DNA of 64,000 nt from a phage: the NCBI GenBank assembly GCA_016390365.1, contig GCA_016390365.1_3043.1; one strand, given 5' to 3'. Within the stretch, counting starts at the first letter, position 1; each line of letters starts with the position of its first letter. Below the pieces are notes generated by a model that saw only the letters and a program-made list of their open reading frames with translations, did not search any database and was not told the DNA's origin. This document shows, piece after piece, positions 1-31,984 of this stretch. The translations under genes and the position numbers were made by a program.

Positions 1-939
1 ATGTACAATATTAAATGCCTGACCAAAAACGAACAAGCTGAAATTGTTAAACTGTATTCAAGCGGTAATTACACCCAGCAGGAATTGGCTGATTGGCAAG
101 GTGTATCGGTTGACACAATCCGTCGTGTTTTGAAAAATGCTGAAGAAGCTAAACGCTCTAAAGTTACTATTAGCGGTGATATTACAGTTAAAGTTAATAG
201 CGATGTAGCTATTGCTCCAGTTGCTAAATCTGATATTATTTGGAATGCTTCTAAAAAATTCATTTCAATTACTGTTGACGGTGTAACTTATAACGCAACT
301 CCTAATACTCATTCAAACTTCCAGGAAATTCTTAATCTGCTTGTAGCAGATAAGCTGGAAGAAGCTGCACAAAAAATTAATGTTCGTCGCGCTGTTGAAA
401 AATATATTTCCGGCGATGTTCGAATTGAAGGTGGAAGCTTGTTCTATCAAAATATTGAATTGCGATCTGGTTTGGTTGATCGTATTCTCGACTCGATGGA
501 AAAAGGTGAAAACTTTGAATTTTATTTTCCGTTCTTGGAAAATCTGCTGGAAAACCCAAGCCAAAAAGCGGTATCTCGACTCTTTGATTTCTTGGTAGCA
601 AATGATATTGAAATTACAGAAGATGGCTACTTCTATGCTTGGAAAGTAGTTCGCAGCAATTACTTTGACTGTCACTCAAACACCTTTGATAACAGTCCGG
701 GTAAAGTAGTTAAAATGCCACGTACTCGTGTGAATGACGATGATACACAAACTTGTTCTCGTGGTCTGCATGTGTGTTCTAAATCTTATATTCGTCACTT
801 TGGCAGTTCAACTAGCCGAGTTGTAAAAGTTAAGGTTCATCCTCGCGATGTAGTATCAATTCCGATTGATTACAACGACGCTAAAATGCGTACCTGCCAA
901 TACGAAGTAGTTGAAGACGTTACTGAACAATTTAAATAA
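1..939 (+). CDS. rIIB: rIIB protein (rapid-lysis, membrane-associated)
   Basis: 312-aa ORF starting at window position 1; sequence (MYNIKCLTKNEQAEIVKLY...) matches T4 rIIB from memory. Confidence 0.93.
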   Translation: MYNIKCLTKNEQAEIVKLYSSGNYTQQELADWQGVSVDTIRRVLKNAEEAKRSKVTISGDITVKVNSDVAIAPVAKSDIIWNASKKFISITVDGVTYNATPNTHSNFQEILNLLVADKLEEAAQKINVRRAVEKYISGDVRIEGGSLFYQNIELRSGLVDRILDSMEKGENFEFYFPFLENLLENPSQKAVSRLFDFLVANDIEITEDGYFYAWKVVRSNYFDCHSNTFDNSPGKVVKMPRTRVNDDDTQTCSRGLHVCSKSYIRHFGSSTSRVVKVKVHPRDVVSIPIDYNDAKMRTCQYEVVEDVTEQFK

Positions 940-971
940 GGGCTTCGGCCCTTATCACATTAAGGAAAATT

Positions 972-1166
972 ATGTTAGGTTATCAAGCACGAGTAAAAGA
1001 AGAATACGATCAATTAATGCTCAAAATTAATGCACTGAGCAAATTTTTAGAAAGCGCAAAGTTTCTAACAGTTAGTGCAGTTGAGCAAGAATTACTGCTT
1101 TCACAGTTTATCTCAATGAAATCTTATGCTGACTGTTTAGAGAAAAGAATTGAACAATTCAAATAA
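972..1166 (+). CDS. hypothetical small protein
   Basis: 64-aa ORF flanked by two identical C(UUCG)G hairpins; no recognisable motif. Confidence 0.45.
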   Translation: MLGYQARVKEEYDQLMLKINALSKFLESAKFLTVSAVEQELLLSQFISMKSYADCLEKRIEQFK

Positions 1167-24481: not shown

Positions 24482-25030
24482 ATGAAACAATACCAATTTT
24501 TAATTAAAGATATCCTGGAAAATGGCTACAAAACCGATGACCGAACAGGCACAGGAACAATTGCTTTGTTCGGTACTAAATTACGCTGGGATTTAACTAA
24601 AGGTTTTCCTGCAGTAACAACTAAGAAGCTCGCCTGGAAAGCTTGCATTGCTGAGCTAATATGGTTTTTATCGGGAAGCACAAATGTCAATGATTTGCGA
24701 TTAATTCAACATGATTCGTTAATCCAAGGCAAAACAGTTTGGGATGAAAATTACGAAAATCAAGCAAAAGATTTAGGATACCATAGCGGTGAACTTGGTC
24801 CAATTTATGGAAAACAGTGGCGTGATTTTGGTGGTGTAGACCAAATTATAGAAGTTATTGATCGTATTAAAAAACTGCCAAATGATAGGCGTCAAATTGT
24901 TTCTGCATGGAATCCAGCTGAACTTAAATATATGGCATTACCGCCTTGTCATATGTTCTATCAATTTAATGTTCGTAATGGATACCTTGACCTTCAGTGG
25001 TATCAACGTTCGGTAGATGTTTTCTTGGGT
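24482..25030 (+). CDS. td: thymidylate synthase, exon 1
   Basis: 183 codons of TS ending ..QRSVDVFLG; intron follows after the terminal U; the in-frame stop at 25031-25033 is the intron's first codon. Confidence 0.93.
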
Positions 25031-26045
25031 TAATTGAGGCCTGAGTATAAGGTGACTTATACTTGTAATCTATCTAAACGGGGAAACTCTCTAGTAGACA
25101 ATCCCGTGCTAAATTGTAGGACTGCCCTTAATAAATACTTCTATATTCAAAGAGGTATTTATGAAAAGCGGAATTTATCAGATTAAAAATACTTTAAACA
25201 ATAAAGTATATGTAGGAAGTGCTAAAGATTTTGAAAAGAGATGGAAGAGGCATTTTAAAGATTTAGAAAAAGGATGCCATTCTTCTATAAAACTTCAGAG
25301 GTCTTTTAACAAACATGGTAATGTGTTTGAATGTTCTATTTTGGAAGAAATTCCATATGAGAAAGATTTGATTATTGAACGAGAAAATTTTTGGATTAAA
25401 GAGCTTAATTCTAAAATTAATGGATACAATATTGCTGATGCAACGTTTGGTGATACATGTTCTACGCATCCATTAAAAGAAGAAATTATTAAGAAACGTT
25501 CTGAAACTGTTAAAGCTAAGATGCTTAAACTTGGACCTGATGGTCGGAAAGCTCTTTACAGTAAACCCGGAAGTAAAAATGGGCGTTGGAATCCAGAAAC
25601 CCATAAGTTTTGTAAGTGCGGTGTTCGCATACAAACTTCTGTTTATACTTGTAGTAAATGCAGAAATCGTTCAGGTGAAAATAATTCATTCTTTAATCAT
25701 AAGCATTCAGACATAACTAAATCTAAAATATCAGAAAAGATGAAAGGTAAAAAGCCTAGTAATATTAAAAAGATTTCATGTGATGGGGTTATTTTTGAAT
25801 GTGCAGCAGATGCAGCTAGACATTTTAAAATTTCGTCTGGATTAGTTACTTATCGTGTAAAATCTGATAAATGGAATTGGTTCTACATAAATGCCTAACG
25901 ACTATCCCTTTGGGGAGTAGGGTCAAGTGACTCGAAACGATAGACAACTTGCTTTAACAAGTTGGAGATATAGTCTGCTCTGCATGGTGACATGTAGCTG
26001 GATATAATTCCGGGGTAAGATTAACGACCTTATCTGAACATAATG
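25031..26045 (+). mobile_element. group I self-splicing intron in td, carrying the I-TevI gene
   Basis: 5' intron sequence TAATTGAGGCCTGAGTATAAGGTGACTTATACTTGTAATCTATCTAAACGGGG matches the T4 td intron from memory; ends ..CTGAACATAATG with terminal G; rejoined exons give a 286-aa TS. Confidence 0.88.
25161..25898 (+). CDS. GIY-YIG homing endonuclease I-TevI (intron-encoded)
   Basis: 245-aa ORF inside td intron; sequence matches I-TevI (MKSGIYQIKNTLNNKVYVGSAKDFEKRWKRHF...). Confidence 0.95.
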   Translation: MKSGIYQIKNTLNNKVYVGSAKDFEKRWKRHFKDLEKGCHSSIKLQRSFNKHGNVFECSILEEIPYEKDLIIERENFWIKELNSKINGYNIADATFGDTCSTHPLKEEIIKKRSETVKAKMLKLGPDGRKALYSKPGSKNGRWNPETHKFCKCGVRIQTSVYTCSKCRNRSGENNSFFNHKHSDITKSKISEKMKGKKPSNIKKISCDGVIFECAADAARHFKISSGLVTYRVKSDKWNWFYINA

Positions 26046-26357
26046 CTACCGTTTAATATTGCATCATATGCTACGTTAGTTCATATTGTAGCTAAGATGT
26101 GTAATCTTATTCCGGGAGATTTGATATTTTCCGGTGGTAATACTCATATCTATATGAATCACGTAGAACAATGTAAAGAAATTTTGCGTCGTGAACCTAT
26201 GGATTTATGCGAATTACAATTAAAATTTCCAGATGAATTTGATGAATGGGACACAGAATCGCAGGTATTTTGGTTGAGTCAATTCGCAAAGCCGCATAAT
26301 TTTGTTCTTAACAACTATGAATCACACCCTCCTATTAAAGGAAAGATGGCGGTGTAA
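26046..26357 (+). CDS. td: thymidylate synthase, exon 2
   Basis: 103 codons in frame with exon 1 after intron removal ([21 protein letters not shown]...). Confidence 0.9.
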
Positions 26358-26377: not shown

Positions 26378-26623
26378 ATGATTTTACGATTTAAAGATAC
26401 TTCTGGCGTTGTTCTTTTTACACTTCCTAACCCAAGCGAGTTAGAAGTTCCAGGACCAGAACAGCCTATTATCATTTATGGTAAAAAATACTATACTCAT
26501 AAAATGACTCGTGAGTATTTTGATAATAAAATTTCCACAGTTAAAACTTCTTCTGACTGTTACTATGATATTACTGTATTAACGGAAAAACAATATGACG
26601 AATGTAGAACTTTAGCAGTATAA
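26378..26623 (+). CDS. hypothetical protein (nrdA.1-like position)
   Basis: 81 aa from ATG 26378 with RBS GCGAGGATAT; track ORF begins at TTG 26366. Confidence 0.45.
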
Positions 26624-27343
26624 ATATGATTCCCAGCAATCTAGAGCGCATCTTTTAGATATAAGTTTTCTGCTTATTCCGGTTTGACGCACAGCTTCTG
26701 CTATTGTTGGATATTCTACCCCATCTATACTTACTCTTAGATGGGGTTTCTTTTTACCTCTCTGTGAGTCAGAAATTCGTTTTCTAACTTCATTGGTATG
26801 CGTCTGTCCGTAATATGGATTATTGATGCCTTTCATATTAAGTGCAGCGTTTCTTTCTTGGAACTTTTTGCTTATTTCTATAGCACGATCTAACCCATAG
26901 TGTTCTTCTATAGTTTTACCTTTGATGTCTCTAGGTCTACCATGTTTTTGCTTAAGTTCTTCTGGTGATAATTTTGAATTATTATTTTTAATTGCATTTG
27001 AAATTTTATTAAGGATTTCTTGCTTTCTTGGGTGATGAGATAAGGTATCCCCAAACGATGCGTCTGCTATATTATACCCATTTTCCTTTGAGTCATATTC
27101 ATGCATCCAATAATTTTCACGTTCAATAATGATAGATTTTTCGTATGGAAGTTCTTCTATGATTTTACATACGAAAGCATCTTTACCATGCTTATTATAA
27201 GAACGCTGCAGCTTTATTGAATGATGATTTCCATTATCTAAATCTTTAAAGTGTCGTTTCCATCGTTCTTCAAAATTAATTGCACTTCCTATATAGTGCT
27301 TATTAGTTTTAGTGTTTATAATAGCATATATTCCAGATTTCAT
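26612..27343 (-). CDS. free-standing GIY-YIG homing endonuclease (I-TevI paralog)
   Basis: 243-aa ORF; N-terminal about 100 aa closely parallels I-TevI catalytic domain (GIY..YIG, ERWKRHF, IERENYW, NGYNIAD); SD AGGAG and late promoter upstream on minus strand. Confidence 0.8.
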
Positions 27344-27365: not shown

Positions 27366-27373
27366 TATTTATA
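27366..27373 (-). promoter_or_regulatory. late promoter (TATAAATA) for free-standing GIY-YIG endonuclease gene
   Basis: TATTTATA on plus strand, 22 nt upstream of the ATG, with SD AGGAG in between. Confidence 0.6.
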
Positions 27374-29663: not shown

Positions 29664-29714
29664 TATAATTTGACTCATGGACGAGTCACTAACTATTAAC
29701 TAAGAGGAAAATTT

Positions 29715-30390
29715 ATGAGCACAGTTTTTAATACAAATCCAGTTGATGTTTTAAAAGAACCTATGTTTTTTGGTTCAGGTCTTGGTATTGCGCGTTATGA
29801 TATTCAACGGCATCGAGTATTTGAAGAACTTACTGAGAAGTCTTTATCATTTTTTTGGCGTCCTGAAGAAGTAAACTTAATGATGGATGCTGCACAGTTT
29901 AATAAGCTTCCTCAGTATCAGCAAAATATTTTTACTAACAACCTGAAGTATCAATCACTTTTGGATAGCATTCAGGGCCGTGCGCCGTCTGCTGTACTTA
30001 TGTCATTAATTTCAGACCCAAGCCTTGATACATGGGTTGCTACATGGACTTTTAGTGAAACTATTCACAGTCGTTCATATACTCATATCATGCGAAATCT
30101 TTATACTGATCCATCGAAGGTATTTGATGAGATTGTATTAGATGAAGCTATCATGAAACGTGCTGAATCTATCGGTCGCTATTATGATGATGTCTTGGTT
30201 AAAACCCGTGAATGGGAAAATGCTAAAGAATTTGTAGAACTAGCTAAAGAATCTCCTGATGCCGACTTTCGTTTAAACCGAGCTATTAAACAAGAAGCCG
30301 AAGCTAAACGTGCTTTAATGAAGTCTCTTTACCTCTGTTTACACGTTATTAATGCCTTAGAAGCTATTCGTTTTTATGTATCTTTTGCGT
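29715..30390 (+). CDS. nrdB: ribonucleotide reductase small subunit, exon 1
   Basis: 225 codons plus 1 nt of NrdB ending ..EAIRFYVSFA; exon ends on U at 30390; the in-frame stop belongs to the intron. Confidence 0.9.
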
Positions 30391-30500
30391 AAAATGCGCC
30401 TTTAAACGGTAACGTTTATCGAAAACTCCTTTAATTGCTGGAAAGTCCTTTATAGGAAAACTAGCAGCCAAGGTTTTGCTTGCACCTTTAATTAGTATAA

Positions 30501-30508
30501 TATAAATA
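30501..30508 (+). promoter_or_regulatory. late promoter (TATAAATA) inside nrdB intron for I-TevIII
   Basis: Exact TATAAATA 28 nt upstream of the endonuclease ORF. Confidence 0.6.
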
Positions 30509-30535
30509 TGATTATACTTTTAAGAGGATGCACAA

Positions 30536-31345
30536 TTGAACTATAGAAAAATTTGGATAGATGCTAACGGACCTATACCTAAAGATTCTGATGGAAGAAC
30601 ATACGAAATCCATCATAAAGACGGTAACCGTGAAAATAATGATTTAGATAATTTGATGTGCCTTTCTATACAGGAACATTATGATATACATTTAGCTCAA
30701 AAAGATTACCAGGCTTGTCATGCTATAAAGCTTAGAATGAAATATTCTCCTGAAGAAATTTCTGAATTAGCTTCTAAAGCCGCAAAATCTAGAGAAATCC
30801 AGATTTTTAATATCCCTGAAGTACGAGCTAAAAATATTGCCTCTATTAAATCTAAGATAGAAAATGGTACATTTCATCTTTTAGACGGTGAAATACAGCG
30901 TAAATCTAATTTAAATAGAGTTGCATTAGGTATACATAATTTTCAACAAGCTGAGCATATTGTAAAAGTTAAAGAACGCAATATTGCAGCTATAAAAGAA
31001 GGTACTCATGTATTTTGCGGTGGTAAAATGCAGTCAGAAACTCAATCAAAACGGGTAAATGACGGTTCACATCATTTCTTGTCAGAAGACCATAAGAAAA
31101 GAACATCAGCAAAAACATTAGAAATGGTTAAGAACGGGACCCATCCTGCACAAAAAGAAATCACATGTGATTTCTGCGGTCACATTGGTAAAGGTCCTGG
31201 ATTTTATCTAAAACATAATGACAGATGTAAATTAAATCCAAATAGAATTCAATTGAATTGTCCATATTGTGATAAGAAAGATTTATCACCATCAACATAT
31301 AAACGATGGCACGGCGACAATTGCAAAGCAAGGTTCAACGACTAG
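30536..31345 (+). CDS. HNH homing endonuclease I-TevIII (intron-encoded, full length)
   Basis: 269-aa ORF inside nrdB intron with zinc-finger-like Cys pairs; ORF as tracked begins at TTG 30536 with SD AAGAGGA 7 nt upstream; TATAAATA at 30501. Confidence 0.8.
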   Translation: MNYRKIWIDANGPIPKDSDGRTYEIHHKDGNRENNDLDNLMCLSIQEHYDIHLAQKDYQACHAIKLRMKYSPEEISELASKAAKSREIQIFNIPEVRAKNIASIKSKIENGTFHLLDGEIQRKSNLNRVALGIHNFQQAEHIVKVKERNIAAIKEGTHVFCGGKMQSETQSKRVNDGSHHFLSEDHKKRTSAKTLEMVKNGTHPAQKEITCDFCGHIGKGPGFYLKHNDRCKLNPNRIQLNCPYCDKKDLSPSTYKRWHGDNCKARFND

Positions 31346-31481
31346 TCTTCGGACGTAGGGTCAAGCGACTCGAAATGGGGAGAATCCCTCTGGGATTGTG
31401 ATATAGTCTGGTCTGCATAGTAATATGTAGCAGTTCATAAGAGAACGGGTTGAGAATTAGCGAGCTCAATCGAACATAACG

Positions 31482-31984
31482 GTACCTTTAACTTCCACAA
31501 GAATATGGAAATCATGGAAGGTAATGCCAAGATTATGAAGTTCATTGCACGTGATGAGCAGCTTCACCTTAAAGGCACTCAATATATTATTCGTCAACTT
31601 CAACTTGGCACTGATGGCGATGAATGGGTTAAAATTGCTCAAGAGTGTGAACAAGAAGCAGTTGATATTTTCATGGAAGTTAACCGCCAAGAAAAAGATT
31701 GGGCAGTTCATTTATTTAAAAATGGCGATGTTCCTGGATTAAATACAAATAGCATGTGGAGCTTTATTGATTACTTAACTGTATCTCGTATGAAACAGTG
31801 TGGTCTTCCATGCCCAATTACCGATGCTCCGGTTAAACATCCGTATCCTTGGATTCGTGAATATCTTAATTCTGATAATGTTCAATCCGCGCCACAAGAA
31901 GTAGAACTGTCATCCTATCTTGTTGCACAGATTGATAATGATGTTGATGATAAAGTTATGATGAGTTTTAAAAAATATTTTTAA
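31482..31984 (+). CDS. nrdB: ribonucleotide reductase small subunit, exon 2
   Basis: 167 codons in frame after splicing; contains the conserved NrdB C-terminal region. Confidence 0.85.

Follow-up and report, generated by a model that had tools for sequence, protein, structure and literature searches.

The window, a 64,000-nucleotide stretch of phage DNA, very probably carries a full-length, mobile RB3-type nrdB group I intron of the T-even phages with an intact I-TevIII gene. The intron (30391..31481; 1091 nt, T4 nrdB-type, full-length RB3 form) was assigned by its identity with RB3, its unique insertion point and the Rfam model RF00028. It lies on the + strand, as do all features described below. 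What we examined comprises sequence identity, the splice junction, the RNA core, a regulatory hairpin, purifying selection in the TTG frame of the endonuclease gene and conservation of its start region. The element, its endonuclease, their regulation and the deletion that relates them to T4 are already known from work published in 1991-2010, and the discovery value here is small. The practical value lies in annotation: nrdB is one spliced gene, join(29715..30390, 31482..31984), and I-TevIII runs from the TTG at 30536 to 31345.

Splice junction and group I core

The Pfam profile Ribonuc_red_sm spans both halves of NrdB, with exon 1 (29715..30390) covering profile positions 9-141 and exon 2 (31482..31984) positions 174-271. 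Exon 1 ends in ..TTT GCG T at T30390. This T is the first base of a Cys codon, and the TAA that closes the unspliced nrdB ORF begins at the same base. Exon 2 opens at G31482 (GT ACC TTT AAC ..), and its first two bases, GT, complete the codon. Joining T30390 to G31482 gives TGT (Cys), and the spliced translation is a NrdB of 392 aa that reads ..FYVSFA-C-TFNFHKNMEIMEGNAK.. across the junction. An intronless nrdB allele in phage vB_EcoM_NBG2, 98.3% identical to our 300-nt spliced query, is uninterrupted at this place, with ..TTTTGCAT followed directly by GTACCTTTAAC... When the insert is placed on this allele only a single boundary is possible, between T30390 and A30391 on the left and between G31481 and G31482 on the right. 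The first-pass annotation, which had nrdB split after ..FYVSFA by a 1091-nt element ending in G, was thus exact in its coordinates, and the intronless allele fixes the junction. We also considered a junction shifted by one base, in which GCG would be followed by GGT (Gly), and rejected it because the intron would then end in C and the intronless allele has TGT.

The first base of the intron is A30391 and the last is G31481, the omega G. In P1 (30387..30399) the exon bases GCGU (30387-30390) pair with the internal guide GCGC (30396-30399), with a U30390.G30396 wobble at the 5' splice site; P1 is unchanged in 10 variants. Alignment of an ORF-less variant to the Rfam model places P2 at 30403-18, the 5' strand of P3 at 30426-31, P4-P5 at 30436-66 and the 5' strand of P6 at 30467-68. 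The core resumes within the final codons of the ORF, where a second copy of the motif ACAATTG (31317-23) is followed by the 3' strands of P6a (31323-32) and P6 (31333-34). The stretch 31340..31408 contains P7 (31340-44 with 31404-08), P7.1, P7.2, the 3' strand of P3 (31377-82) and P8 (31384-96). P9, P9.1, P9.2 and the terminal G occupy 31413..31481, with P9 taken from the Rfam alignment and the G read from the sequence. The ORF occupies the P6a loop. Its last ~10 codons double as the 3' sides of P6a and P6 and as the 5' side of P7, with the stop codon (TAG, 31343-45) in P7/P7.1.

An Rfam scan of the window at the gathering score returned no match anywhere, and RF00028 reached 33.9 bits against a gathering score of 50. 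The score is below threshold because the 0.8-kb ORF interrupts the model. We considered this weak score as an argument against an intron and dismissed it, as natural ORF-less variants pass: the 304-nt variant of PD112 scores 68.6 bits (E = 4.8e-16) and that of SG1 57.9 bits. The sole difference between the PD112 core and that of the window is a 2-nt deletion in the promoter loop. ORF-bearing phage introns like that of nrdB thus escape the Rfam gathering threshold. A tRNA scan of the window found no genes.

To count pairs, we drew P1-P9.2 and the P7 pseudoknot on ten aligned ORF-less cores. For 86 pairs (858 cells), 99.4% are standard pairs, versus 37-45% when the partners are slid by 1-3 columns; as the structure was drawn from the same sequences, this percentage is partly circular, and the independent part of the evidence is the compensatory changes. 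Five pairs show such changes: two in P2 and one each in P5, the hairpin over the Shine-Dalgarno sequence discussed below and P9, where an A-U pair became G-C.

The insert is a group I intron, for which we take GTP-dependent self-splicing from the literature; for the T4 and RB3 nrdB introns, self-splicing in vitro and ligated exons in vivo are published, as cited in PMC1865063 and PMC2790892. The RNA folds into the P1-P9.2 core with the I-TevIII gene looped out of the P6a stem and, by analogy, would splice itself so that T30390 is joined to G31482 and the Cys codon is restored. Many GenBank records are annotated as though nrdB were unspliced, with two separately translated genes and an endonuclease gene between them. 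Two NrdB CDSs are given in NP4, SG1, PD112 and AV109, and the ATG at 31505 could open a 159-aa C-terminal NrdB fragment. That fragment would lack the residues C-TFNFHKN, however, and the exon ends fall exactly where the intronless allele is continuous. The group I hallmarks (the U.G at the 5' splice site, the terminal G, the P3-P9 core that scores above threshold once the ORF is absent, and the covariation) and the published splicing of the near-identical T4 and RB3 introns also stand against two separate genes, and we regard that arrangement as extremely improbable.

The I-TevIII gene and its relatives

The I-TevIII gene of the nrdB intron (30536..31345) starts at TTG and encodes 269 aa. It is not a chance ORF, because its product matches PHROG 12324 ('intron-like DNA endonuclease') over the full length (1-269 of 269, E=4.8e-193) and, with residues 4-48, Pfam HNH_3 (E=5.9e-13). 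With TTG as codon 1, the H-N-H residues H26, H27, N39 and H48 are all present. The two zinc fingers are CX2CX12HX3C (211-231, with CDFCGHIGKGPGFYLKHNDRC at 211) and CX2CX13HX3C (242-263, with CPYCDKKDLSPSTYKRWHGDNC at 242), and C211, C214, C242 and C245 stand at their published numbers. In the RB3 enzyme, the four H-N-H residues are required for cleavage (Robbins et al. 2007, PMC1865063), and C211/C214 and C242/C245 for DNA binding (PMC1865063). The earlier description of a 269-aa ORF with HNH and zinc-finger features is therefore correct, with both fingers, the catalytic residues and the two profile matches found. Residues 74-114 also matched Pfam FlgM just above its cut-off (25.7 bits vs 25), which we took as a chance match in a charged helical linker. 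A sequence search of the PDB with the I-TevIII protein gave no meaningful match to any solved structure.

We searched 50,697 phage records with the insert by megablast; 129 of them match the intron, 85 at a coverage of at least 80% and 55 at an identity of at least 99%. The intron is 99.8-99.9% identical over 1091 nt to those of RB3 and about 50 other phages. Its relatives come in several sizes: 1091-1096 nt in the window, RB3, NP4, HY03 and others, 598 nt in T4, 592 nt in AV109 and an IMG/VR contig, 420 nt in SG1 and 304 nt in PD112. The full-length 'wild' form (85 of the 129 matching records) is thus commoner among sequenced phages than truncated forms of the T4 type. The intron holds just two copies of ACAATTG, one at 30532-38 that contains the TTG and one at 31317-23, and the 304-nt PD112 intron corresponds to a deletion between them.

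The nrdB intron of RB3 (X59078.1, KM606994.1; Eddy & Gold 1991; Robbins et al. 2007), the phage from which the full-length form was originally described, has the same insertion site and length and is identical to the window at 1089 of 1091 nt. It shares the TTG, the Shine-Dalgarno sequence, the late promoter, the hairpin and the catalytic and zinc-binding residues. The two I-TevIII proteins are identical at 267 of 269 residues with no gaps. The differences, both nonsynonymous, are Y23 here for D23 in RB3 and V143 here for A143 in RB3; at position 23 RB3 is the outlier, because the other five copies compared have Y23. In the RB3 records, nrdB is given as a join of two segments that enclose I-TevIII. 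RB3 also carries mobE between nrdA and nrdB, whereas the phage in the window is without it. The T4 intron (NC_000866) shares with the window the insertion site, the core, the promoter, the Shine-Dalgarno sequence and the TTG. A deletion of 493 nt, bounded by the near-repeats GAAGAACATA and GAAGACCATA, shifts the frame, so that the reading frame of the TTG meets a stop after 22 codons. What is annotated as T4 'I-TevIII' (97 aa) begins with an ATG of a different frame and comprises just the zinc-finger end. The contrast that the first-pass annotation drew between a truncated T4 form and a full-length RB3 form holds in the alignments.

Substitutions indicate that the TTG frame is under purifying selection. 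The NP4 copy is 89% identical; of the 104 differences from it, 66 are third-position changes, and 56 of the changed codons are synonymous and 28 nonsynonymous. This bears on whether the ORF could be intact in appearance but non-functional or decaying, the intron being a passenger as in T4 and mobilized in trans by mobE, on which the T4 nrdB intron depends for its spread (PMC2790892). Decay is frequent in this intron family, as the 598-, 592-, 420- and 304-nt forms show, and V143 is one private substitution of the window's protein relative to six other copies. However, position 143 also varies in intact copies (A, K or T), and the ORF here is full-length, with both zinc-finger motifs and all eight of the residues that experiments showed to be required in place. 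The late promoter, the Shine-Dalgarno sequence and the hairpin are intact too. With only a 51-nt spacer between nrdA and nrdB, mobE is absent and homing in trans by mobE is thus unavailable. Together with the signature of purifying selection, these observations make a passenger intron very improbable.

We therefore retain the reading of an intact gene in a mobile intron, for which cleavage and homing are taken from the literature. The RB3 enzyme is a dimer and the RB3 intron homes (PMC1865063). From the biochemistry of that 99%-identical protein, the window's I-TevIII would likewise bind the intronless nrdB allele as a dimer.

The probable TTG start codon

In the endonuclease frame, an in-frame TAA (30521-30523) is followed only by GAG GAT GCA CAA and then by the TTG at 30536, which is therefore the first possible start. 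A Shine-Dalgarno sequence, AAGAGGA (30522..30528), lies 7 nt before the TTG and is invariant in 12 variants. The nearby ATG at 30528 is out of frame and reads ATG CAC AAT TGA, that is, MHN and a stop. On all of these points our reading of the sequence agrees with the first-pass annotation, which had placed the start at TTG 30536 with AAGAGGA 7 nt upstream and had the ATG frame end after three codons; GenBank and conservation point the same way. It had also allowed for an ATG-initiated frame to emerge on resequencing. Conservation all but rules this out: the 80 nt around the start are the same in 84 of 127 phage records, and TTAAGAGGATGCACAATTGAA is unchanged in all 12 aligned variants, one of which is only 89% identical. 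A pattern scan of IMG/VR for start-codon variants (AANTG) returned one contig, of the truncated form.

The TTG start is not new, and is already part of the public annotation. In the RB3 record X59078.1 the I-TevIII CDS is 191..1000, and position 191 is the same TTG by alignment, within 190 nt that are identical to the window. The same TTG is used in all six full-length genome annotations that we examined, those of RB3 KM606994, NP4, HY03, Biddle_MM4, Pu-Krd-SF5 and fPS-2, each time for an 810-nt gene. The residue numbers used in the biochemistry of 2007 (H26...C245) also fit TTG as codon 1. Changes of the coding type begin at the second codon, where AAC has become AAT, a synonymous third-position change, in three lineages. 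The first in-frame Met, M41, comes only after H26, H27 and N39, and Pu-Krd-SF5 has Ile in its place. From the annotation, the domain boundaries and the substitution pattern we infer that UUG 30536 is the initiation codon in vivo. On this basis, the endonuclease would be translated from UUG 30536 by means of AAGAGGA. The literature on I-TevIII that we consulted (PMC1865063, PMC2790892, PMC2988022 and PMC3014915) contains no direct proof of a native UUG start. Robbins et al. produced the enzyme with a T7 expression vector (PMC1865063), and the review PMC2988022, in general terms, gives the three endonucleases alike an 'AUG initiation codon'. Because reviews say 'AUG' for the three T-even intron endonucleases, the non-AUG start of I-TevIII seems to have escaped functional study.

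The mention of an AUG in that review could be taken to favor translation from elsewhere, either from the AUG 30528 minicistron with reinitiation or frameshifting, or from Met41. The UGA that ends the minicistron (30537-39) overlaps the UUG (30536-38), a geometry that fits termination-reinitiation, and the 13 nt GGATGCACAATTG are invariant in 12 of 12 variants. That invariance can also be explained by RNA pairing (UGCA/UGCA in the hairpin), and reinitiation would still put the start of the protein at the UUG. Moreover, AUG 30528 shares its A with the end of AAGAGGA and so has zero spacing, whereas the spacing of the UUG is normal. Met41 is a poor candidate in view of the cleavage-required residues upstream of it and of its replacement by Ile in one phage. 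The HNH_3 and PHROG profiles begin at residues 4 and 1, and substitutions of the coding type run from codon 2 onward. We thus consider a start other than the UUG very unlikely.

With UUG 30536 as the start, one further reading of the invariant block GGAUGCACAAUUGA is speculative and, in our judgment, rather unlikely. The block may act as an extra, undescribed throttle on I-TevIII translation, combining a weak UUG, which the UGA stop of a three-codon AUG minicistron overlaps, with a minicistron AUG that is itself buried in the Shine-Dalgarno sequence and the UGCA/UGCA base of the hairpin. If this were true, the nuclease would be kept scarce even on late transcripts.

Late promoter, hairpin and the other T-even introns

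A T4 late-promoter consensus, TATAAATA, is matched exactly at 30501..30508. The octamer by itself is weak evidence of a promoter: the window holds 15 copies of it, a mild enrichment over the 9.0 +/- 2.7 expected by chance. The promoter claimed at 30501 is an exact consensus match, and it lies in the loop of a predicted RNA hairpin (30481..30532) that sequesters the Shine-Dalgarno sequence by pairing AAGAGG with CCUUU. The hairpin has a minimum free energy of -14.9 kcal/mol (z = -3.65; none of 200 shuffles folds as well), and its pairing is kept among the variants through one compensatory and several one-sided changes. The late promoter is kept in the full-length NP4 and HY03 introns and is lost or degraded in the ORF-decayed SG1, IMGVR and PD112. 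The evidence for its function is published primer extension in T4, as cited in PMC2988022.

This combination of hairpin and late promoter is the late-expression switch published for I-TevI, II and III (PMC2988022), from which we take late expression here. In the published mechanism, read-through transcripts are translationally silent, and late transcripts start inside the hairpin and so free the ribosome-binding site (PMC2988022; PMC3014915). By analogy, read-through transcripts from nrdB would have their Shine-Dalgarno sequence locked in the hairpin. Late transcripts would start just past TATAAATA and lack the 5' arm of the hairpin, and I-TevIII would therefore be made only late in infection.

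The same region contains a sequence that resembles the homing site and is a putative I-TevIII operator (30474..30493). Here TTTTGCTTGCACCTTTAATT agrees at 17 of 20 positions with the intronless junction, TTTTGCGT joined to GTACCTTTAACT, a match that none of 500 shuffles reaches. It overlaps the 5' strand of P6a, a MotA-box-like TTTGCTTGC and the 5' arm of the hairpin. A putative operator for I-TevIII is mentioned in the review PMC2988022, and at the corresponding position fPS-2 is annotated with a predicted middle promoter.

The T4 introns of td (with I-TevI) and nrdD (with I-TevII) are likewise group I introns in genes of nucleotide metabolism. In both, the ORF is looped from a peripheral stem and its 3' end enters the core, and both share with nrdB a late promoter, a hairpin masking the Shine-Dalgarno sequence and a homing-site copy that resembles an operator (PMC2988022). 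The enzymes differ: I-TevI and I-TevII are GIY-YIG endonucleases, whereas I-TevIII is an H-N-H endonuclease and a dimer that binds DNA through zinc fingers. I-HmuI and other HNH_3 (PF13392) intron endonucleases resemble it in their N-terminal H-N-H domain, after which comes a long, modular region for DNA binding. The window also contains a td intron with I-TevI.

Overlapping elements at the start of the I-TevIII gene

The sequence ACAATTG occurs exactly twice in the nrdB intron, and the two copies lie near the ends of the gene for I-TevIII, the homing endonuclease that the intron encodes. The first copy (30532-30538) includes the TTG start codon and the second (31317-31323) sits 7 codons ahead of the stop codon. 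The ORF-less, 304-nt form of the intron in phage PD112 (L008, 751-1054) is the exact product of a deletion between these two copies. This form could have arisen by a deletion at the microhomology, or it could be the footprint of the endonuclease gene's entry into the intron as a separate cassette.

The first copy also overlaps a three-codon minicistron (ATG CAC AAT TGA, 30528-30539). The A of its ATG is at the same time the final base of the Shine-Dalgarno sequence, and its TGA shares two bases with the TTG start. The minicistron block is unchanged across all 12 aligned variants of the intron, including those from which the ORF has been deleted. Just upstream of the late promoter, positions 30474-30493 match the intronless nrdB homing site at 17 of 20 bases, and none of 500 shuffles gave a match this good. 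This stretch also supplies the 5' strand of P6a, a MotA-box-like motif (TTTGCTTGC) and one arm (5') of the hairpin that sequesters the Shine-Dalgarno sequence, so that up to four functions overlap in it.

Sequence of I-TevIII relative to RB3

The intron differs from that of RB3 at only two positions (30602 and 30963), both of which are nonsynonymous. Codon 23 of I-TevIII encodes Y in the window and D in RB3, and codon 143 encodes V in the window and A in RB3. V143 is private to the window, whereas Y23 is common to the other five full-length copies compared, which makes RB3, the source of the biochemically studied enzyme, the odd one out at residue 23. This residue lies three residues ahead of the catalytic His pair.

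Visual inspection of the linker that connects the H-N-H domain to the zinc fingers (30860-31150, residues ~109-205) shows about five tandem modules of ~23 residues each, centred on G-(T/S/I)-H-x-F (NGTFHLL, LGIHNFQ, EGTHVFC, DGSHHFL and NGTHPAQ). These modules matched no Pfam family. A marginal Pfam hit to FlgM at residues 74-114 of the protein is probably a chance match.

Mobile elements from td to nrdB

The window contains a second ORF-bearing intron, in the thymidylate synthase gene td (24482-26357). Exon 1 (24482-25033) and exon 2 (26043-26357) cover positions 1-175 and 176-266 of the Pfam profile, respectively, and between them lies the 245-aa ORF of I-TevI (25161-25898), with GIY-YIG, I-TevI zinc-finger and DNA-binding domains. 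Like the nrdB intron, the td intron was not detected in an Rfam scan of the window at gathering scores.

The opposite strand carries, in the interval from td to nrdA, a free-standing seg-like gene for a 243-aa GIY-YIG homing endonuclease (26612-27343, - strand) with GIY-YIG, NUMOD3 and weak I-TevI DNA-binding domains. A late-promoter octamer (TATAAATA, 27366-27373, - strand) lies 23 nt upstream of its start. In contrast to the window, T4 and RB3 lack a seg-like gene at this position, and among the 513 phage records with a match, just 9 contain the whole segment, including N2, Ozark and TB004.

In the nrdA-nrdB spacer, RB3 and T4 carry the HNH endonuclease gene mobE. In the window, a 51-nt spacer (29664-29714) without mobE separates the end of nrdA (29663) from the start of nrdB (29715). 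The nrdB intron here therefore travels without mobE, the adjacent gene on which the defective intron of T4 depends for mobilisation in trans (PMC2790892).

Public records of nrdB and its intron

In many public phage genomes, the intron-containing nrdB is split into two separately annotated 'NrdB' CDSs instead of being entered as one spliced gene, as seen at L006, L007, L008 and L010 (GenBank OR122689, NC_054936, MH837626 and OR352939). The second CDS in such records begins at an internal ATG, and the residues C-TFNFHKN are thereby lost. For RB3 itself, the two records disagree by one base in the intron, which is 1090 nt long in the 1991 sequence (L001, X59078.1) and 1091 nt in the 2014 genome (L002, KM606994.1).
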